DNA from: an uncultured Thermodesulfobacteriota bacterium
GTDB lineage: Bacteria; Desulfobacterota; GWC2-55-46; JADFVP01
Direction of reading: 5' to 3'
DNA length: 64,000 bases
Assembly (NCBI GenBank): GCA_964510775.1
Contig: CAZEBZ010000002.1
Span: 8,447 to 72,446, forward strand
Position numbers and translations under genes: made by a program. Shown in pieces: positions 11,497 to 58,289 of the stretch. A model generated the notes under the pieces. The model ran no database searches. It worked only from the letters and a program-made list of their open reading frames with translations, and was not told where the DNA came from. Positions within the stretch are counted from its first letter, which is position 1; the number at the start of each line of letters is the position of its first letter.

Positions 11497-13685
<2,189 letters not shown>

Positions 13686-13736
13686 ATTCGATATATTATT
13701 AGCACAAGAATCAAGTATTGTATAACACAAGACCAC

Positions 13737-14150
13737 TTACTTTCTTTTAGAAACTTACTTTCTTTTAGAAAAAAGAAAGTAAGACAAAGAAAACCAATAT
13801 TAAATTTTACACATAAGCACTTAAAAACCAGCCTGCGCCACGCTTAAAAAAGTAAGACAAAGAAAACCAACGAGTATCAACGGGCCGCTAATTTAAATCT
13901 ATACAATGCACCAGAAATAGAAAAAAAGTAAAACAAAGATAACCAATGTTACAATTCGCACATAAGCACTTAAAAACCAGCCTGCGTCACGCTTAAAAAA
14001 GTAAGACAAAGAAAACCAACGAGTGTCAACGGGCCGCTAATTTAAAGCACTACACTAATACCCCAGACATAGAAAAAAGAAAGTAGGATAAAAAACCCAA
14101 AAATATTAACTATCGCTAATTTAAACCTGCAACGATACCCCAGGTACCGA
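13737..14150. repeat. Structured AT-rich tandem repeat: a 13-bp perfect inverted repeat followed by about 5 units of roughly 73 bp alternating between two types and sharing a 21-nt box AAGTAAGACAAAGAAAACCAA
   Basis: Two near-identical ~150-bp copies differ at 2-3 positions (about 13810-13905 vs 13950-14045). The 21-nt box recurs at about 13779, 13848, 13926, 13999 and 14077 in degenerate form. GCTAATTTAAA recurs three times. The hairpin CTTACTTTCTTTT-AGAA-AAAAGAAAGTAAG lies at 13756-13785. Confidence 0.8.
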
Positions 14151-14157
14151 TTCTCAC

Positions 14158-15366
14158 TTAAAAAGACTTCTTTAGCCTCGCCCCGGGGTAATAATGGCGA
14201 AGGATCTCTCTGTAGGAAGCCCCTGCCTCGGCCATTCCCCGCGCGCCCCACTGCGACATTCCCACGCCGTGGCCAGAGCCGCGGCCCTTAAAGATAAAGA
14301 GCCCGCCATCACGCCTTATGGTAAAGACCGCGCTTCGAAGTATTGAGTACCCTATGATGCGTCTAAGCTCCTCGCCTCTAATAGTCAGGCTCCTGCCGCT
14401 CTTATCAGTAAACCTCACGCCTCGCACCCTGCCGCCTGATGTGAGGTCCTCCGCAACAACCCTTCGGAGAGCCCCAATCCTAAGGCCCTCACCGCGCAGG
14501 ACCCTCGTAAAGATAGGCGCAGGCAGGGCAAAATCCCATCTGTAGCGCGGGTCCGCGTCACCGTCGTGAGGGCTTGGGACGGACCTCAGGTATGGATACT
14601 CATTCGCCCCGCCGCCTCTCCATATATCACTTGCCGCGTCAGTACGCCCGCCTCCGTTGGAGTGATAGACAGTAAGGGCAGGAGCGCCGTTATAAAAAAG
14701 AACCTCGCCGCGGCACTCTCTTACGGCCTCTAAAGAGGCGGCATCCTCAGAGGCGGCGCCGCGGTAGACCTGCCCCGCTACTGTACCCTCTATATCAAAA
14801 GGGCCCGGCGCGGCACGCTCCATGCGGTACAGGACATAAGTCCTCGCCGCAACGGCCTGGGCCTTAACGGCCTCACGGGGCCAGGCAGATGAGATCTCGT
14901 AATTAATTATACCCGCTACGTAATCTTCTATAGCAAGCCTGTTTACAACAAGAAGCCCCATTGAGGACGCGGCATCGGCATAAAGCACAAGTACGCCCCT
15001 GTATGGCCTCTTGTTAAGGTATATAAACTCGCCGGGTCTGGCGGTAAGGGTCAGAGGAAGAGACCTCTCACTATTATTTAAGAAGACCCTGTCTCTTCCG
15101 GCGAGCCTGCGTATAACGAGTTCACCGCCGTCAAGGCTCGCCCGACCGCCTCTTACCGCGCCCCTTACAGTAAGAACATCGGCCCCTCGAAGTACAAGGA
15201 CACGAATGTCTTTGCCTGCCTCTGCGCCGCGAGGCGCGAGCGTAAGGGCAAAGAAAGACATAAGCAAGATAAGAAAAATTTTTTTCCTATTCATGGACAA
15301 AATAGACAGATAAGACGCGCCAGCCGCAGTAGAGACTCCATCAGTCAGGACGGCAGTGATTAACAC
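14158..15366 (-). CDS. SpoIID/LytB-domain protein (peptidoglycan lytic transglycosylase / amidase enhancer family)
   Basis: 402 aa with a signal peptide. SpoIID signature blocks are present (AIEDYVAGIINYEISSAWPREAVKAQAVAARTY and VYHSNGGGRTD). Confidence 0.75.
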   Translation of the reverse strand: MLITAVLTDGVSTAAGASYLSILSMNRKKIFLILLMSFFALTLAPRGAEAGKDIRVLVLRGADVLTVRGAVRGGRASLDGGELVIRRLAGRDRVFLNNSERSLPLTLTARPGEFIYLNKRPYRGVLVLYADAASSMGLLVVNRLAIEDYVAGIINYEISSAWPREAVKAQAVAARTYVLYRMERAAPGPFDIEGTVAGQVYRGAASEDAASLEAVRECRGEVLFYNGAPALTVYHSNGGGRTDAASDIWRGGGANEYPYLRSVPSPHDGDADPRYRWDFALPAPIFTRVLRGEGLRIGALRRVVAEDLTSGGRVRGVRFTDKSGRSLTIRGEELRRIIGYSILRSAVFTIRRDGGLFIFKGRGSGHGVGMSQWGARGMAEAGASYREILRHYYPGARLKKSF

Positions 15367-15725
15367 CTGCAGAGCTCTCGAAGATAGTCCTTTAGCTCCT
15401 CTATCTCTTTATCAGACAATGTCTTACCAAAGGCAGGCATGAGCGTAGACTTGCTTGTAGCAGCGCCGCCGCTGTGTATGACGTCTATTATCTCTTCGTC
15501 AGTGAGCTTTTTCATCTCATAGGCGCTGCTGTGGTCGCGAGGTTCAACGGGCTGACTCTCAGTAGCATTGGGGCCGTCACCACGCCCCTCAAGGCCGTGG
15601 CACTGGGCGCAGTAAAAGGCGTAATTGTCCGGCGCCGAGGCGCCGATTGCGGAGGATGTCAACAAGACAGATAACATCATCGGCATAAAAAAAATAATAG
15701 AGGAAAAAACTTTTTTTCTCACCAC
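15360..15725 (-). CDS. Monoheme class I c-type cytochrome
   Basis: 121 aa with a signal peptide, a single CAQCH heme-binding motif, and a distal Met context (TLMPAFG). Confidence 0.7.
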   Translation of the reverse strand: MVRKKVFSSIIFFMPMMLSVLLTSSAIGASAPDNYAFYCAQCHGLEGRGDGPNATESQPVEPRDHSSAYEMKKLTDEEIIDVIHSGGAATSKSTLMPAFGKTLSDKEIEELKDYLRELCRC

Positions 15726-15747
15726 TTACACTCCGCGGTTTTTTCTA

Positions 15748-16416
15748 TTACTTAAGGGCCGATACATAAGATGCAAGGGCCTTCATCTGCGCCTCTGTTG
15801 CCAAACCCTCATATACAGGCATCCTGCTTACAGGGGTAAATGCCCGCTGATTCCTAAGATAGGCGTATACCCACTGCGGGTTCAATCTATCACGTGTGCC
15901 CTCAAGAGAGGGCCCCGATAGCCCGCCGGCGAGAGAGCCGCGCACATTAACGAGATGACAGCCGTAACAGGCGAACTTCTTAATAAAGGAAATCCTTCCC
16001 CTTACATTTACACCGGGACGTATACCCGCCTCAGGGACAAGCCCCTCGGCCTTAAGGCTCATGAGATAAGAGGCTACGGATTTTGCCATACCTGCCTCAA
16101 GGCGGGGGTGGTCGGCGCTATTCTTTTTTTCAAGAGAATTATAGGCCAGCGGCCTTATGGGCAGAGGATTAGCGAGCCAGCGCTCCAAAAAACCCTCTCT
16201 GAACTTGCTTCCCGCGTACCATAAATCAGGGCCTTTCTTAGCGAGTACGGCAGCGCGACTAAGCTTACCAGAAGGCCTCTCTACGCTGTGACAGCTGCCG
16301 CAGCCCTTTGCGGTAAAGGCCTTGCCCCCCATAGACTCTGAAGAACGCGCCGCAGAGGGAGATAAAAAAACGGACAATATGATTATGAGAAAGAAAGAAA
16401 CAGCAGTGGTTTTCAT
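15748..16416 (-). CDS. Diheme c-type cytochrome
   Basis: 222 aa with a signal peptide and two CxxCH motifs (CGSCH and CYGCH). Confidence 0.7.
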   Translation of the reverse strand: MKTTAVSFFLIIILSVFLSPSAARSSESMGGKAFTAKGCGSCHSVERPSGKLSRAAVLAKKGPDLWYAGSKFREGFLERWLANPLPIRPLAYNSLEKKNSADHPRLEAGMAKSVASYLMSLKAEGLVPEAGIRPGVNVRGRISFIKKFACYGCHLVNVRGSLAGGLSGPSLEGTRDRLNPQWVYAYLRNQRAFTPVSRMPVYEGLATEAQMKALASYVSALK

Positions 16417-18239: not shown

Positions 18240-20789
18240 CTATCGAGAGGATCTTGTCTTGAGGATGGGTATTAGAGAGGCTTCCGGCAAGGGGATATGG
18301 AAGACATGGAGAAGCACATCACAAGGCCTTATAGCCGGCCCGTCGCCGCGCGCAAGGACAAGCCTCACCTGCAGGCCCTTTATACGCTCTAACTCAGCGA
18401 CTTGTTCCTTAATGTCTACTTCTCTTAATTTCTCGCCTTTTTTAATTATCGCCGGAAATGTACCACTTGAATCAAAATCTTTTATATACCCATCGATCCT
18501 ATCGGAATCAATATAAAAACCACGGAGGGACTCTTCAAAATTTAAGAGATACTCATTTTTTTCTATCATATCAGAGCCAGACCCAAGTTTCAAGGCCTCT
18601 CTCTCATTACAGGCCTCGAAGAACTTGAGGCCAAGGGGAGAGTTTCTGTTCAGCACGGCGATAATATCAGAGGTGGGAATAGGCGCGCCGAGAAGGGTTA
18701 TCTCCATGAATTCAACAAGACTCTCCGTGCCAAGAGGCAGGGGCGGAGAAAAGCTCAGCTTTGGCATGGGATGAAAGCCTGATGAGTACTTCACCTTAAA
18801 TTCCGCGCGCCTTATAAGGCGTTTTATGACATTGGCCAGCTCAAGGTGGCCTAAAAACCTCAGATCGCCCTGCTTTGAGAACCTAAGCCTCACCTTGTAT
18901 GACGGCAGATTCTCACGCACCCTCACAGAAGCCGCCTCGGGCACGGGAGTATCTGTAATGATGTTTTTTACGGCCTTATGGTCGCATACTCCGCAGACCG
19001 TACAGGCCGAGTCGCGGCAATCAGGCGTCTGCTCGGCAAGTATGGCTTTTTCGTACTGTGCCCGCAAAAACCCCTTGTCCACGCCCATTGATAGATGCTC
19101 CCAGGGCAGTATCTCAGAGAATTCACGCCTTCTCGATGTATAAAAGTCCGCGCTAATACACTCTTCATCGAGGGCCTGCTCCCAGAGGGTATAGTTGAAC
19201 TTCTCACCCCAGCCGTCAAACCTGCAGCCCTTCTCATAAGCCCGCAGAATTACCGGTGCGAGCCTGCGGTCGCCTCGGGCAAAGATACCCTCCAGTTTAC
19301 TCATAAGAGGGTCGTGCCACTTAAAATCAATGCTCTGCCCGCGAAGCCGCTTTCGCAAGATTCCCTGCAGACGCCGCAGCTCATCAGGTGCGGCTTGGGG
19401 CTCCCACTGAAATGGAGTAAAGGGTTTTGGGATAAAAGAAGAGACAGAGACACTTATGCGCGGGCCTCCCCTCCCGCCCCTTGCCGCGGCCTTTGCCGCC
19501 CTCTTAACACGGCCTGCAAGCTCGGCTATCTCCAGCACGTCTTCTTCTGTCTCCGTAGGCAGGCCTATCATAAAATAGAGCTTAACAGACTTCCAACCAA
19601 GGGCGAATATCTCACTAACGGCGCGAAGCAGGTCTTCTTCTGTAATGCCCTTATTAATCACATAACGAAGCCTCTCAGAGCCTGCCTCAGGTGCAAGGGT
19701 AAAACCTGTCTTTCTGACTTTTTTTATCTCCGCGGCAAGAGCCGTACCAAGGGTTCCCACACGGAGCGAGGGCAGCGACAGCGCGATTCTATCATGGACA
19801 AAATCCTTCATAAGCCCCTGCATAAGGGGCTCAATGGCGCTGTAATCACCTGCGCTGAGGCTAAGAAGAGAGACATCATCATAACCCGTATTCGCCAGGG
19901 CCTCTCTTATAATCTCCATAACCACGGCAGGAGAGCGCTCCCTTATGGGCCTGTAAATCATACCCGCCTGACAGAACCTGCACCCCCGTGTACAGCCGCG
20001 GTTTATCTCCACTGTCACACGGTCGTGAATAGTCTCCGTAAAGGGCACAATGGGCCTTACAGGCCTGCTGCTATCCATGTCCATGACTATCCTTCTCTCA
20101 AGAGGGGCGAACTCGGGGTGATGCGGAGTTATCTCTCTTACCCTCTTGTCCTCATTATAGGAGACCTCAAAGAATGCGGGCACATAGACGCCCTTTACCC
20201 CCGCGAGGGCCTTAAGTATATCGCCACGCTTATCACCTCTTTTTCGGCCCTCCAAAACCACAAGGGCCATCTCAAGGGCCGCCTCCTCGCCGTCTCCAAG
20301 TAAGAAGGCATCAAAAAAGGCCGCTACAGGCTCGGGGTTGCACGTAAGGGGGCCGCCTCCAAAGACAAAAGGGGTAGACTCGTCCCTATCAGCGGCTAAA
20401 AAGGGCACGCCGCCAAGCTCAAGCATCATAAGGACATTTGTATAAGAGAGCTCGTACTGAAGAGAGAAGCCGATGATATGAGAGGCAGATAGGGGCAGCC
20501 CCGACTCAAGCGTGGTAAGGGGAATACTCTTCTCACGCAGCAGGGCCTCCATATCCGTCCAGGGGGCAAAGACACGCTCGCAGGCAATATCGTCGCAGCT
20601 GTTAAGCCCCTGATAGAGTATCTGCATACCAAGATGGCTCATACCAACCTCGTAGCTGTCAGGAAATGCCAATGCGTACCTCAGCGCCACTGTATTGAGG
20701 TCTTTCTTAACTGAGTTGACCTCGCCGCCTATATACCTTGAGGGCCGCCTCACAAGGGGCAGGAATTTTTTAATATCAATATTTTCCAT
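18240..20789 (-). CDS. B12-binding-domain radical SAM protein (TIGR03960-like) fused to a C-terminal DUF2344/TIGR03936-like domain
   Basis: 849 aa. The radical SAM motif is CTRGCRFC (Cx3Cx2C), preceded by a B12-binding-like N-terminal region. The C-terminal roughly 250 aa resemble the radical-SAM-associated DUF2344 protein that usually accompanies this family next to rng. The family names are assigned from memory only. Confidence 0.65.
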   Translation of the reverse strand: MENIDIKKFLPLVRRPSRYIGGEVNSVKKDLNTVALRYALAFPDSYEVGMSHLGMQILYQGLNSCDDIACERVFAPWTDMEALLREKSIPLTTLESGLPLSASHIIGFSLQYELSYTNVLMMLELGGVPFLAADRDESTPFVFGGGPLTCNPEPVAAFFDAFLLGDGEEAALEMALVVLEGRKRGDKRGDILKALAGVKGVYVPAFFEVSYNEDKRVREITPHHPEFAPLERRIVMDMDSSRPVRPIVPFTETIHDRVTVEINRGCTRGCRFCQAGMIYRPIRERSPAVVMEIIREALANTGYDDVSLLSLSAGDYSAIEPLMQGLMKDFVHDRIALSLPSLRVGTLGTALAAEIKKVRKTGFTLAPEAGSERLRYVINKGITEEDLLRAVSEIFALGWKSVKLYFMIGLPTETEEDVLEIAELAGRVKRAAKAAARGGRGGPRISVSVSSFIPKPFTPFQWEPQAAPDELRRLQGILRKRLRGQSIDFKWHDPLMSKLEGIFARGDRRLAPVILRAYEKGCRFDGWGEKFNYTLWEQALDEECISADFYTSRRREFSEILPWEHLSMGVDKGFLRAQYEKAILAEQTPDCRDSACTVCGVCDHKAVKNIITDTPVPEAASVRVRENLPSYKVRLRFSKQGDLRFLGHLELANVIKRLIRRAEFKVKYSSGFHPMPKLSFSPPLPLGTESLVEFMEITLLGAPIPTSDIIAVLNRNSPLGLKFFEACNEREALKLGSGSDMIEKNEYLLNFEESLRGFYIDSDRIDGYIKDFDSSGTFPAIIKKGEKLREVDIKEQVAELERIKGLQVRLVLARGDGPAIRPCDVLLHVFHIPLPEASLIPILKTRSSR

Positions 20790-20821: not shown

Positions 20822-22483
20822 TTAATGGGAAGAAGGCGCACATACGCCGCACCTTGTGCATCCGGGGAGGCAGGGCCCTGTAAAGAGCCCCTTCTTTGCC
20901 CTCTCGTACTCAGACCATAAATACTCTTTCTTAACACCAAAATCTATAATATCCCAGGGAAGGATCTCTTCTTTAGCCCTCTCTCTGTATACAGAGGCCT
21001 CCATCAAGGCGCGCCTCTTCTTTATGCTCCTCTTAAGGCCCGTCTCTGCAGCCTCAAGAACAAGCGCGCCCGCCCGACTATCGGCGCGAGCAACGTAGGC
21101 CTGAAAAAAGGCCGCGCCAAGAGGCATGGAGTTAAGGCGCACTCCCTTTAAGGGGCGAAGCCCCGCTCTTATAATACCAAGCCTTCTTTTTAATATTTCC
21201 TCAGTCTCAAGGGTTGACCACTGAAAAGGGGTAAAGGGTTTTGGTATAAAGGGGTTAAGGCTAATGGTAATCTCCGCGCCGCTGAATAACTTATGTATCT
21301 TCGCGATAAGCTCCACTATGGCTGCGGCGTCTTCATCAGTCTCTGTTGGCAGGCCAAAGAGAAAGTATAACTTCATCCGCCCAAAACCCGCCTCCCTGAC
21401 CAACTCTACTGCGCCAAGGATATCGGCCTCAGAAAGGCCCTTATTTATTACGAGCCTCATTCTCTCAGAGCCCGCCTCTGGAGCAAGGGTAACTGTCCTG
21501 TACCCCGCCCTCTTTAGCATAGATAGCTTTTCCTTATCAAGGACATCAAGGCGCATGGAGCTAAGCGTCACCTTTGCCCCTGCCTTCAGGCCTTCCTCAA
21601 CAACAGCCGTGAGGCATGAGTAATCTGATACGGCCGTACCAACGAGTCCTACCTTGCCGGCAGCCTTGGCACCCTCCCGCACGGCAGAAAAGACCTGCTT
21701 TGGCTGACGCTCTCTCTCTGGCAGACAGACAAAACCAGCTGCGCAGAACCTGCATCCCCGCCCGCAGCCCCGCTCTATCTCTATTAACGAGGCCTCCTTA
21801 AAGGCGGCAAGAGGCGTGCGTATAAAATTCTGCGGAATAAAAAAACCCTTAAGTGATTTATTTTTCTTCGCCCTCACCCTCGACTTTACACCCTCACCGG
21901 GCTTTACGGCTTTTAAGACATCATCACTATACTCAACCTCATATAAAGAAGGAACAAAGGTAAAATCAAGCCTCTCTAATGCCTTTAAGAGGGTTGGTTT
22001 TGTTGCCTTTGTCTCAAGGAGGTCTCTGTAAACCTCCATAAACTCCTCTACCGCCCCCTCGCCCTCTCCGGCGATAAAGATATCCATAAAGTCCGAGATA
22101 GGCCAGGGGTTTAAGGACGGAGCTATACCGCCTGCGAGAATAAGGGGCTGCGGCGCCTGCCGCTTCGAAGCTAATGGCGATAAGTCTGCGAGTCTCAGGA
22201 TAAGCGGGATATTAAGGTAATCCTCCTCAAAAGAAATGGAGAAGGCTACGATATCAAAATCCTTAAGAGGCCTCTGTGATTCAAGGGTAAAGAGCGGCGT
22301 ACCAGGGCCTTCAAAGCTGGCGATATCAACCTTATCAGGCAGAAAGACACGCTCGGCGAGCACCCAGTCCATGGAGTTAAGGAGCTTGTAAACTGACTGA
22401 AAACCAAGATTACTCATAGCAGGCGAGTAATGATTGGGGTAGACAAGGGCTACACTTATACGCCCGCCCCGGTCTTTTCGCAC
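20822..22483 (-). CDS. B12-binding-domain radical SAM protein (paralog of the upstream gene, no DUF2344 domain)
   Basis: 553 aa with CGRGCRFC (Cx3Cx2C). It is collinear with the N-terminal 550 aa of the 849-aa neighbour; for example LAPEAGSERMRLVINKG aligns with LAPEAGSERLRYVINKG. Confidence 0.7.
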   Translation of the reverse strand: MRKDRGGRISVALVYPNHYSPAMSNLGFQSVYKLLNSMDWVLAERVFLPDKVDIASFEGPGTPLFTLESQRPLKDFDIVAFSISFEEDYLNIPLILRLADLSPLASKRQAPQPLILAGGIAPSLNPWPISDFMDIFIAGEGEGAVEEFMEVYRDLLETKATKPTLLKALERLDFTFVPSLYEVEYSDDVLKAVKPGEGVKSRVRAKKNKSLKGFFIPQNFIRTPLAAFKEASLIEIERGCGRGCRFCAAGFVCLPERERQPKQVFSAVREGAKAAGKVGLVGTAVSDYSCLTAVVEEGLKAGAKVTLSSMRLDVLDKEKLSMLKRAGYRTVTLAPEAGSERMRLVINKGLSEADILGAVELVREAGFGRMKLYFLFGLPTETDEDAAAIVELIAKIHKLFSGAEITISLNPFIPKPFTPFQWSTLETEEILKRRLGIIRAGLRPLKGVRLNSMPLGAAFFQAYVARADSRAGALVLEAAETGLKRSIKKRRALMEASVYRERAKEEILPWDIIDFGVKKEYLWSEYERAKKGLFTGPCLPGCTRCGVCAPSSH

Positions 22484-57985: not shown

Positions 57986-58142
57986 GGGTAGAGGGCATAA
58001 GGGGTAGAGAGCAGAAGGGGCAGAGGGCATAAGGGGTAGAGGGCATAAGGGGTAAGAGGCAGGAGAGGGGCAGAGGGCAGGAGAGGGGCAAGGGGCAGGA
58101 GAGGGGCAGAGGGCAGCAGGGGTACAGGGGACAGGAGGGGTA
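57986..58142 (+). repeat. G-rich tandem repeat of 18-nt units (AGGGCATAAGGGGTAGAG x3, then GGGCAGGAGAGGGGCAGA x3-4)
   Basis: The plus strand carries GGG/GGGG runs every 6-9 nt over about 160 nt. The spurious minus-strand ORF across it translates as repeated PLPLSCPLPLSC, which reflects the periodicity. Confidence 0.8.
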
Positions 58143-58213: not shown

Positions 58214-58289
58214 GGCGGCGTACCCAAGTGGCTAAGGGAGCAGTCTGCAACACTGCCATCCAGCGGTTCGAATCCGCTCGCCGCCTCCA
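58214..58289 (+). tRNA. tRNA-Cys (GCA), CCA encoded
   Basis: GGCGGCGTACCCAAGTGGCTAAGGGAGCAGTCTGCAACACTGCCATCCAGCGGTTCGAATCCGCTCGCCGCCTCCA. It has a 7-bp acceptor stem, the anticodon loop CTGCAAC with anticodon GCA, and a GGTTCGAAT T-loop. Confidence 0.9.

Follow-up and report, generated by a model that had tools for sequence, protein, structure and literature searches.

A probable local amplification of a dispersed box-and-hairpin repeat upstream of queA in an uncultured Thermodesulfobacteriota bacterium

Introduction

What is the AT-rich array that separates a SpoIID-domain gene from queA in an uncultured Thermodesulfobacteriota bacterium, and does it serve the genes that it adjoins? The locus lies within a 64,000-nucleotide stretch of contig CAZEBZ010000002.1 (the window), in which the 472-bp spacer between the two genes is filled with repeats. 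An earlier note, made from the letters of the window, had offered small-RNA genes, iterated sites for a DNA-binding protein, or a miniature mobile or REP-like (repetitive extragenic palindrome) element as candidates, and had suggested that the repeat could modulate the queA operon. The array is probably a locally amplified, tandem-duplicated copy of a lineage-wide family of extragenic repeats akin to REP, BIME (bacterial interspersed mosaic element), and BOX sequences, a family that would have a sequence-specific partner. Its basic module, a T-rich box joined to a short hairpin, seems not to have been described before; a literature search for the sequence strings returned no paper that contains them.

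Compact bacterial genomes rarely contain small dispersed repeats, which break short-read assemblies. REP, BIME, BOX, and Correia elements affect mRNA stability, termination, translation, and genome rearrangement.

Organization of the array

All of the genes flanking the array are on the minus strand, which places the array downstream of the SpoIID-domain gene and upstream of queA. The minus, gene-sense strand is the informative reading, and the box reads TTGGTTTTCTTTGTCTTAC... on it. Viewed in this direction, the array (13735-14104) comprises five T-rich boxes 73-82 nt apart (73/76/73/82) and ends in one hairpin. Its GC content is 0.32-0.40, vs 0.5-0.6 in the flanking genes. Tandem Repeats Finder detects a 149-bp period (2.0 copies, 13772-14078, 88% matches), a 73-bp sub-period, and a perfect 18-bp repeat (2.1 copies, 13735-13771), in agreement with the hierarchical tandem repeat described earlier. 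The 21-nt box AAGTAAGACAAAGAAAACCAA is found at 13777, 13850, 13926 (with two mismatches), and 13999. Its expected number, from 100 shuffles, is zero, and the rest of the 64-kb window contains no further copies. The proposed fifth, degenerate unit is also present, with its box at 14070-14104 (80%), as is the perfect 13-bp inverted repeat with a 4-nt loop (13754-13783), and a third copy of the hairpin arm occupies 13736-13748. The two ~150-bp copies had been described as differing at only 2-3 positions. This is accurate for the central ~88 nt (two differences), but the whole copies differ by 16 substitutions and a 3-nt indel, for ~88% identity.

The components of the array are listed in Table 1. 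Its terminal module is identical to the canonical 44-nt module of eight related metagenome-assembled genomes (MAGs), described below. The extra copy of the loop and right arm that follows, which is specific to the window and absent from L002 (the locus of a relative that carries an orthologous array), can form a two-tier hairpin by pairing with the box. The B-type filler is common only to the window and L002. By contrast, the A-type filler of unit 4 aligns with a loose "type-1" consensus, CGTGGGGCGCA..TTCAATG..CCCC, from other loci. The order of units suggests that an ancestral [B-unit][A-unit][terminal module] may have been duplicated into B-A-B-A-terminal, with the right arm then duplicated once more. 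Slipped-strand events or unequal recombination between the 25-30-nt direct boxes would be the probable cause, and we infer that arrays of this type grow by local tandem duplication between direct boxes. The unit number rests on a short-read MAG assembly, and L001, a contig from an independent Logan assembly, stops precisely at the edge of the array, so the copy number in the window is not fully secure. The independent relative L002 has a comparable array at the same place. Unit counts of this repeat in MAG assemblies need caution.

A dispersed family of modules

Species-representative genomes were scanned with the 22-nt box pattern TTGSTTTTCTTWGYCTTACTTT, which matches at least 105 genome stretches; 98 of those listed come from eight Thermodesulfobacteriota MAGs. 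A 44-nt core, TTGGTTTTCTTTGT-CTTACTTTCTTTT-TTCY-AAAAGAAAGTAAG, is present in more than 130 copies in fragments of these eight related genomes, which represent uncultured relatives of sulfate reducers, and at least 44 module copies fall within 255 kb sampled from one of them. Searching the same loci by hairpin yields 116 hairpins, 115 of which have the box on exactly one side. Of the candidates put forward in the earlier note, the miniature mobile or REP-like element is therefore favored, as the box-and-hairpin unit is dispersed in many copies through related genomes.

The copies share a recurring architecture of zero to four units, each with a box and a left arm without its right arm followed by 45-75 nt of filler, and then one complete module. 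With H denoting a complete module and a dash each incomplete unit, the matches listed contain the patterns H (67), -H (29), --H (8), ---H (2), and ----H (1), the last being the five-box array of the window, which is the longest among them. The complete hairpin is almost always on the last box, and only two HH arrays are found among the matches listed, both direct. Single modules account for 67 of 109 elements. The modal box spacing across loci is 83-87 nt. Fillers are near-identical within an array and different between loci, and about one-third carry the type-1 consensus (CGTGGGGCGCA..TTCAATG..CCCCYA). Some motifs in the fillers (CGTGGGGCGCA, TTCAATG, and CCCCYA) were compared by eye with sigma-54, sigma-32, and sigma-70 sites, and these readings were dropped as partial matches; furthermore, type-1 elements face the 3' end of a convergent gene more often than a gene start (17 vs 9). 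A module scan of viral contigs gave no matches.

Two other groups of sequences were encountered in the course of this search (Table 1). The loci from Bacteroidota MAGs that were caught by the box pattern have a different motif, in which a T-rich box and the hairpin TTGCTTTTCTTAGCCTTACTTTTCTTTAGAAGAAAAGTAAC are followed by conserved GC-rich AATCGCCCTGTGCAAGCCCGRCGGGG..; this motif has no Rfam match. There are also box-less versions consisting of a hairpin and then a T-run (CTTACTTTCTTTTAGAAAAAAGAAAGTTTTTTGAT), which are terminator-like and may represent a sister sub-family.

Structure and conservation of the module

Covariation was assessed over 30 distinct module variants, three of which were padded by 1-2 nt at the loop or the box-stem junction to maintain register. 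The 13-bp helix is paired in 97.9% of cells. Two-sided changes occur at five of the 13 stem pairs (37 cells), a level that none of 500 shuffles reaches and that slid controls do not approach (at most 12 cells). It is the outer stem that covaries (CTTAC/GTAAG, TCCAC/GTGGA, CCCGC/GCGGG, and others), and its five pairs take many different, fully complementary sequences within one genome. Orthologous sites also differ by compensatory changes, for example CCTAC/GTAGG vs CCCGC/GCGGG. The box and the inner stem TTTCTTTT/AAAAGAAA are nearly invariant, and the fourth loop base is free. Folded as DNA, the window module has an energy of -10.9 kcal/mol (z = -4.6); for RNA, the consensus structure has an energy near -14 kcal/mol. 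The hairpin forms in single-stranded nucleic acid, with its outer stem preserved by compensatory change. We propose that the invariant part may be recognized by a conserved trans-acting protein, which would copy, repair, or use the element.

The module was also compared over 25 cross-species pairs of orthologous sites. The neighboring gene is 82% identical in amino acid sequence and 53% identical at four-fold degenerate sites. The 44-nt module shows 96% identity, a value inflated by the gathering of the loci with an exact 22-nt pattern that fixes half of the module, and the 60 nt upstream of it show 40%. Islands of identity in the alignments are confined to the module.

Invariance of the box and inner stem (TTTCTTTT-N4-AAAAGAAA) could also be explained if the boxes were iterated double-stranded DNA sites for a nucleoid-associated or regulatory protein, all displayed on one face of the helix. 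The spacings are compatible with this arrangement, since ~73 nt equals seven helical turns and ~84 nt equals eight, and both the window intervals and the modal spacing elsewhere lie near these values. The AT-rich tracts and the indifference of the elements to gene orientation point in the same direction. However, the changes in the outer stem indicate pairing rather than base-specific contacts, and most copies are single modules rather than arrays. Furthermore, no candidate protein was found, and the neighboring genes have no functional theme. We consider this explanation distinctly unlikely.

The structural data also bear on the proposal of a small-RNA gene array, and on that of a degenerate or orphan CRISPR array. 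Regular 25-30-nt repeats separated by 45-75-nt segments, with a terminal repeat that differs, do resemble such loci. Yet the whole array, folded on the gene-sense strand, is no better than shuffles (z = -0.85), and RNAalifold applied to 38 type-1 elements recovers the terminal hairpin alone, with the filler unstructured. Rfam 15 covariance models, run on the region at gathering and permissive thresholds, give nothing relevant; the best E-values are chance microRNA and small-RNA matches of ~20 bits, against cut-offs of 55-100 bits. A promoter scan of the spacer finds one hexamer pair where 1.0 is expected by chance, and a terminator scan finds none where 1.6 are expected. The spacer-like fillers duplicate each other within the array, as the earlier note had argued in setting CRISPR aside, and most family members are single modules. 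A Pfam scan of the seven array-flanking genes revealed no Cas domains, the rest of the window not having been scanned for cas genes. Both forms of this proposal are highly improbable, and the small-RNA candidate of the earlier note was not borne out.

The SpoIID-queA site in relatives

The SpoIID-QueA spacers of relatives were collected by way of the QueA protein, with no reference to the repeat. These genomes retain the gene order RNase G - cytochrome c - cytochrome c - SpoIID - QueA - Tgt - YajC - SecDF, and the spacers differ. One relative (L002, QueA 84% identical) has three 83-nt units and the same terminal box and hairpin. In L115/L114 (QueA 70%), there is one unit and a variant module, the stem of which has changed from CTTAC/GTAAG to TCCAC/GTGGA and is compensated. 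L113 (71%) retains a decayed relic of the element, and in L112 and L004/5 (67-72%) the element is absent. This series of retention, decay, and loss is the turnover that one expects of such repeats. Because the element is missing from two relatives that keep the gene order and is reduced to a relic in a third, it cannot be essential for queA-tgt-yajC-secDF. A QueA scan of metagenomes recovered relatives no more than 57% identical, and the module is missing from all of them.

A promoter-like motif, CTTGTAT-N16-TTACAAT, follows the element site in the relatives, ~31-37 nt upstream of the queA ATG (compared in L002 815-880, L004 4930-5000, and L115 2440-2500); L002 and L112 have TAAAAT in place of TTACAAT. 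In the window, TTGTGT adjoins TATACAAT, as if a spacer of ~15 nt had been lost beside the duplicated hairpin arm (13690-13735). The one hexamer pair in the window spacer may be a remnant of the relatives' motif and is a putative promoter, judging from this alignment of sequences. The repeat therefore sits between the stop codon of the SpoIID-like gene and a likely queA promoter, and is dispensable at this position.

Genomic context of the copies

Approximately 95 of 109 elements are intergenic, and the genes beside them share no functional theme. Those enclosed by paired elements or recurring nearby are housekeeping genes, including yicC-gmk, def-fmt, glmM, ABC transporters, and kinases. A transposase was sought between paired elements, and only such housekeeping genes were found there. 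Multi-copy protein clusters near the elements are ordinary paralogues.

These surroundings are informative about a classical miniature inverted-repeat transposable element (MITE), which derives from a DDE transposon, is non-autonomous, and has terminal inverted repeats together with target-site duplications. The module is dispersed, short, AT-rich, and intergenic, and contigs often break at it. The earlier note had reserved this identification for many dispersed copies flanked by target-site duplications. The copies are there, but the duplications are not: at module boundaries, duplications of 2-6 nt number 0-1, vs 0-3 expected by permutation. In addition, the ends of the element are direct rather than inverted repeats, ~700 kb of flanking sequence contains no transposase other than the REP-associated tyrosine transposase (RAYT) discussed below, viral contigs lack the module, and many copies occupy orthologous positions in different species. 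A MITE is thus very improbable.

Elements take no preferred orientation with respect to the genes beside them (>E> 34, <E< 29, >E< 12, and <E> 7, where E is the element and the arrowheads are genes). An intrinsic terminator, composed either of a GC hairpin with the T-rich box or of the AT hairpin with a T-run, was rejected as a general function on the basis of this lack of bias toward the upstream gene, and a GC hairpin is found directly upstream in only 8 of 102 modules, which also counts against it. The positions of the two ends differ, however. Of 64 cases (module loci L006-L110), 29 have the hairpin end no more than 16 nt from a convergent gene's stop codon; for the box end, such closeness to any gene occurs in only 6 of 106.

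This placement raises the question of whether the module is a host cis-acting RNA element, such as a 3'-end stabilizer, an RNase processing site, or a translation brake after the stop codon, with individual copies selected by the host. In E. coli, REPs stabilize the mRNA upstream of them, and those no more than ~15 nt from a stop codon reportedly lower translation (Liang, Rudd & Deutscher 2015). The proximity to stop codons would be accounted for, as would the strong stem covariation, the compensatory changes at orthologous sites, and a conservation far above that of four-fold codon sites. Some copies even lie between cistrons of one operon, for example among the ABC-transporter genes in L053. 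On the other hand, orientation to transcription is random (34 vs 29), yet the 14-nt box is invariant and always one-sided; mRNAs would carry the U-rich and A-rich versions equally. The mismatches in the stem (five of G-U type vs three of C-A type) have no strand asymmetry and do not point to a strand-specific RNA. Relatives do without the element at the queA site, and the window hairpin lies ~400 nt from the SpoIID-like stop codon. On balance, a host RNA element is the leading alternative, one that we hold to be rather unlikely.

Comparison with known repeat systems

Several attributes of the module are those of REP and BIME sequences as defined in PMC3733652 and PMC2817692. It is a short extragenic palindrome (20-40 bp in REPs; the hairpin here is 30 nt) with tens of copies in either orientation, mostly between co-directional or convergent genes. 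Its stem is preserved by compensatory change, with a conserved unpaired flank on one side only. It often clusters in mosaics with other small repeats, and the same consensus recurs across related species. The genomes that carry it also hold RAYT genes and canonical REPs. The differences are that the unpaired flank is a 14-nt T-rich box rather than GTAG or CGTC, that the stem is AT-rich, and that the arrays are direct tandems with truncated hairpins, not the alternating inverted REPs of BIMEs or the doublets of REPINs.

The co-resident REP system was examined directly. A motif screen identified RAYT genes in two MAGs, and their identity is confirmed by NCBIfam NF047646 (198 and 188 bits), Pfam Y1_Tnp, and PDB 4ER8 TnpArep (E = 5e-43). 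Each RAYT is a single 180-aa gene, flanked at all five loci by inverted, GC-rich GTAG hairpins (GTAG-GTTGGGT..ACCCAAC or GTAG-GGTGGGC..GCCCACC), which is the canonical REP-RAYT arrangement (PMC2817692, PMC3733652). At some of these loci, the AT-rich module lies 75-320 nt from the RAYT on one side only, or 1.3 kb away, and GTAG REPs are scattered in mosaic clusters beside it in the related MAGs. Neither RAYT nor GTAG REPs occur in the 64-kb window. By definition, one end of a REP palindrome carries an unpaired tag, GTAG or CGTC (PMC3733652), and the cognate RAYT gene lies between two inverted copies of the repeat (PMC2817692). The module has no such tag and does not flank the RAYT; it is therefore REP-like in behavior but lacks two defining features of a REP.

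Pneumococcal BOX elements have the form boxA - n x boxB - boxC, with terminal inverted repeats and target-site duplications (PMC3049150). The module family resembles them in being composite and intergenic, with predicted stem-loops, a variable number of tandem internal units, and a length that varies by gain or loss of internal modules (PMC3049150). It differs in its lack of terminal inverted repeats and target-site duplications, in a filler that is locus-specific rather than a fixed boxB, in the lack of sequence similarity, and in its phylum.

A further parallel is with the ends of IS200/IS605-type elements. The A-rich strand reads as a hairpin and then a conserved 14-nt 3' tail with a sharp end (..AAAACCAA|). 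A hairpin with a conserved single-stranded tail and no target-site duplications is typical of substrates of HUH enzymes. The module has no associated HUH gene and no left-end/right-end pair enclosing a gene, and the likeness would be one of resemblance only.

Several observations weigh against the REP/BIME/BOX-like family that we favor. The RAYT is flanked by the GC-rich GTAG REPs and not by the AT-rich module, which has TTGT (the end of the box) 5' of its stem and G plus variable sequence on the other side, in place of a GTAG or CGTC tag. No mobilizing or binding protein was identified in the loci examined. A purely passive repeat does not predict the polarity of the hairpin end toward stop codons, and the near-identity across species (subject to the inflation mentioned above) with compensation in situ is explained at least as well by host selection acting on individual copies as by a selfish repeat. 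Moreover, the window itself contributes this single locus in 64 kb. The dispersal, the uniform architecture, and the turnover at the queA site nevertheless lead us to regard the array as a probable amplified member of such a family. If it affects its neighbors, it might shield the upstream transcript at its 3' end or insulate the SpoIID-like gene from queA.

Locus and neighboring features

The stop codon of the SpoIID-domain gene is ~54 nt from the first, degenerate box, and the queA ATG at 13685 is 68 nt past the hairpin. A database QueA entry (P0001, 370 aa, 100% identical) starts instead at GTG 13736. Past queA are tgt, yajC, and secD. QueA homologues place the window among uncultured Thermodesulfobacteriota ("Deltaproteobacteria"), not Firmicutes. 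We note that the SpoIID-like gene is part of a conserved block (14158-16416) with two c-type cytochrome genes and a gene for RNase E/G, which precede it; it resides in a non-sporulating Thermodesulfobacteriota lineage, and the sporulation label is therefore misleading.

Table 1. Positions of the array components, the flanking genes, and related features at other loci (window coordinates unless a locus is named)
Feature	Position	Strand	Description
queA, downstream neighbor	12624..13685	-	Pfam PF02547, 1.1e-116
Sigma-70-like hexamer pair	13695..13724	-	TATACA-18-AATAAT; sole pair in spacer (promoter scan)
Extra loop and right-arm copy	13735..13753	-	TTCTAAAAGAAAGTAAG; the perfect 18-bp x 2.1 repeat
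Terminal complete module	13754..13797	-	14-nt box TTGGTTTTCTTTGT (13797-13784) and perfect 13-bp AT-rich hairpin; arms 13783-13771 and 13766-13754, loop TTCT
Unit 4, A-type	13798..13870	-	box and left arm without right arm (13870-13846); filler AAGCGTGGCGCAGG...TTTAATA
Unit 3, B-type	13871..13946	-	variant box TTGGTTATCTTTGTTTTAC; filler TCTATTTCTGGTGCATTG..TTAGCGGCCCGTTGATACTCG
Unit 2, A-type	13947..14019	-	duplicate of unit 4
Unit 1, B-type	14020..14104	-	degenerate box TTTGGGTTTTTTATCCTAC; B filler 14020-14073
SpoIID/LytB-domain protein gene, upstream neighbor	14158..15366	-	Pfam PF08486, 6.4e-23
RAYT loci	L036 2150-3400; L095 3150-4450; L116 1280-2640; L120 1030-2050		
Bacteroidota motif loci	L078 7140-7185; L087 6999-7040; L094 3697-3735; L103 260-300		T-rich box and hairpin
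Box-less hairpin loci, among others	L010 4281-4307; L050 4188-4214; L045 3846-3872; L014 6072-6096		hairpin and T-run

Two unrelated repeats were observed elsewhere in the window. A G-rich, degenerate tandem repeat of GGGTAGAGGGCAGAAG-like units (57986-58142, period 16-18, ~9 copies) sits ~70 nt upstream of a tRNA gene (58214-58286). A 33-nt direct repeat, 91% identical, occurs at 19404-19436 and 21218-21250, 1.8 kb apart; a tandem repeat (23 nt x 2, 21225-21269) overlaps the latter.

Implications

The repeat upstream of queA is probably neither a locus-specific regulator nor a small-RNA cluster. What sets the family apart is a 44-nt core that is near-invariant across species whose synonymous sites are near saturation, combined with stem covariation, strict polarity, and growth into direct arrays. 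It is also unusual in sharing its genomes with a canonical REP-RAYT system to which it does not appear to belong. As a tentative extension, the box-and-hairpin module might be an unrecognized extragenic element of Desulfobacterota, distinct from the co-resident REP-RAYT system. It could be the single-stranded DNA substrate of an enzyme that keeps its sequence uniform across species. Alternatively, the host may have domesticated it as a structured element that adjoins dozens of housekeeping genes at their ends, often no more than 16 nt from a stop codon, and tunes their expression. Should there be a dedicated partner protein or a function for the host, the module would join REP-RAYT as a second kind of maintained extragenic element.

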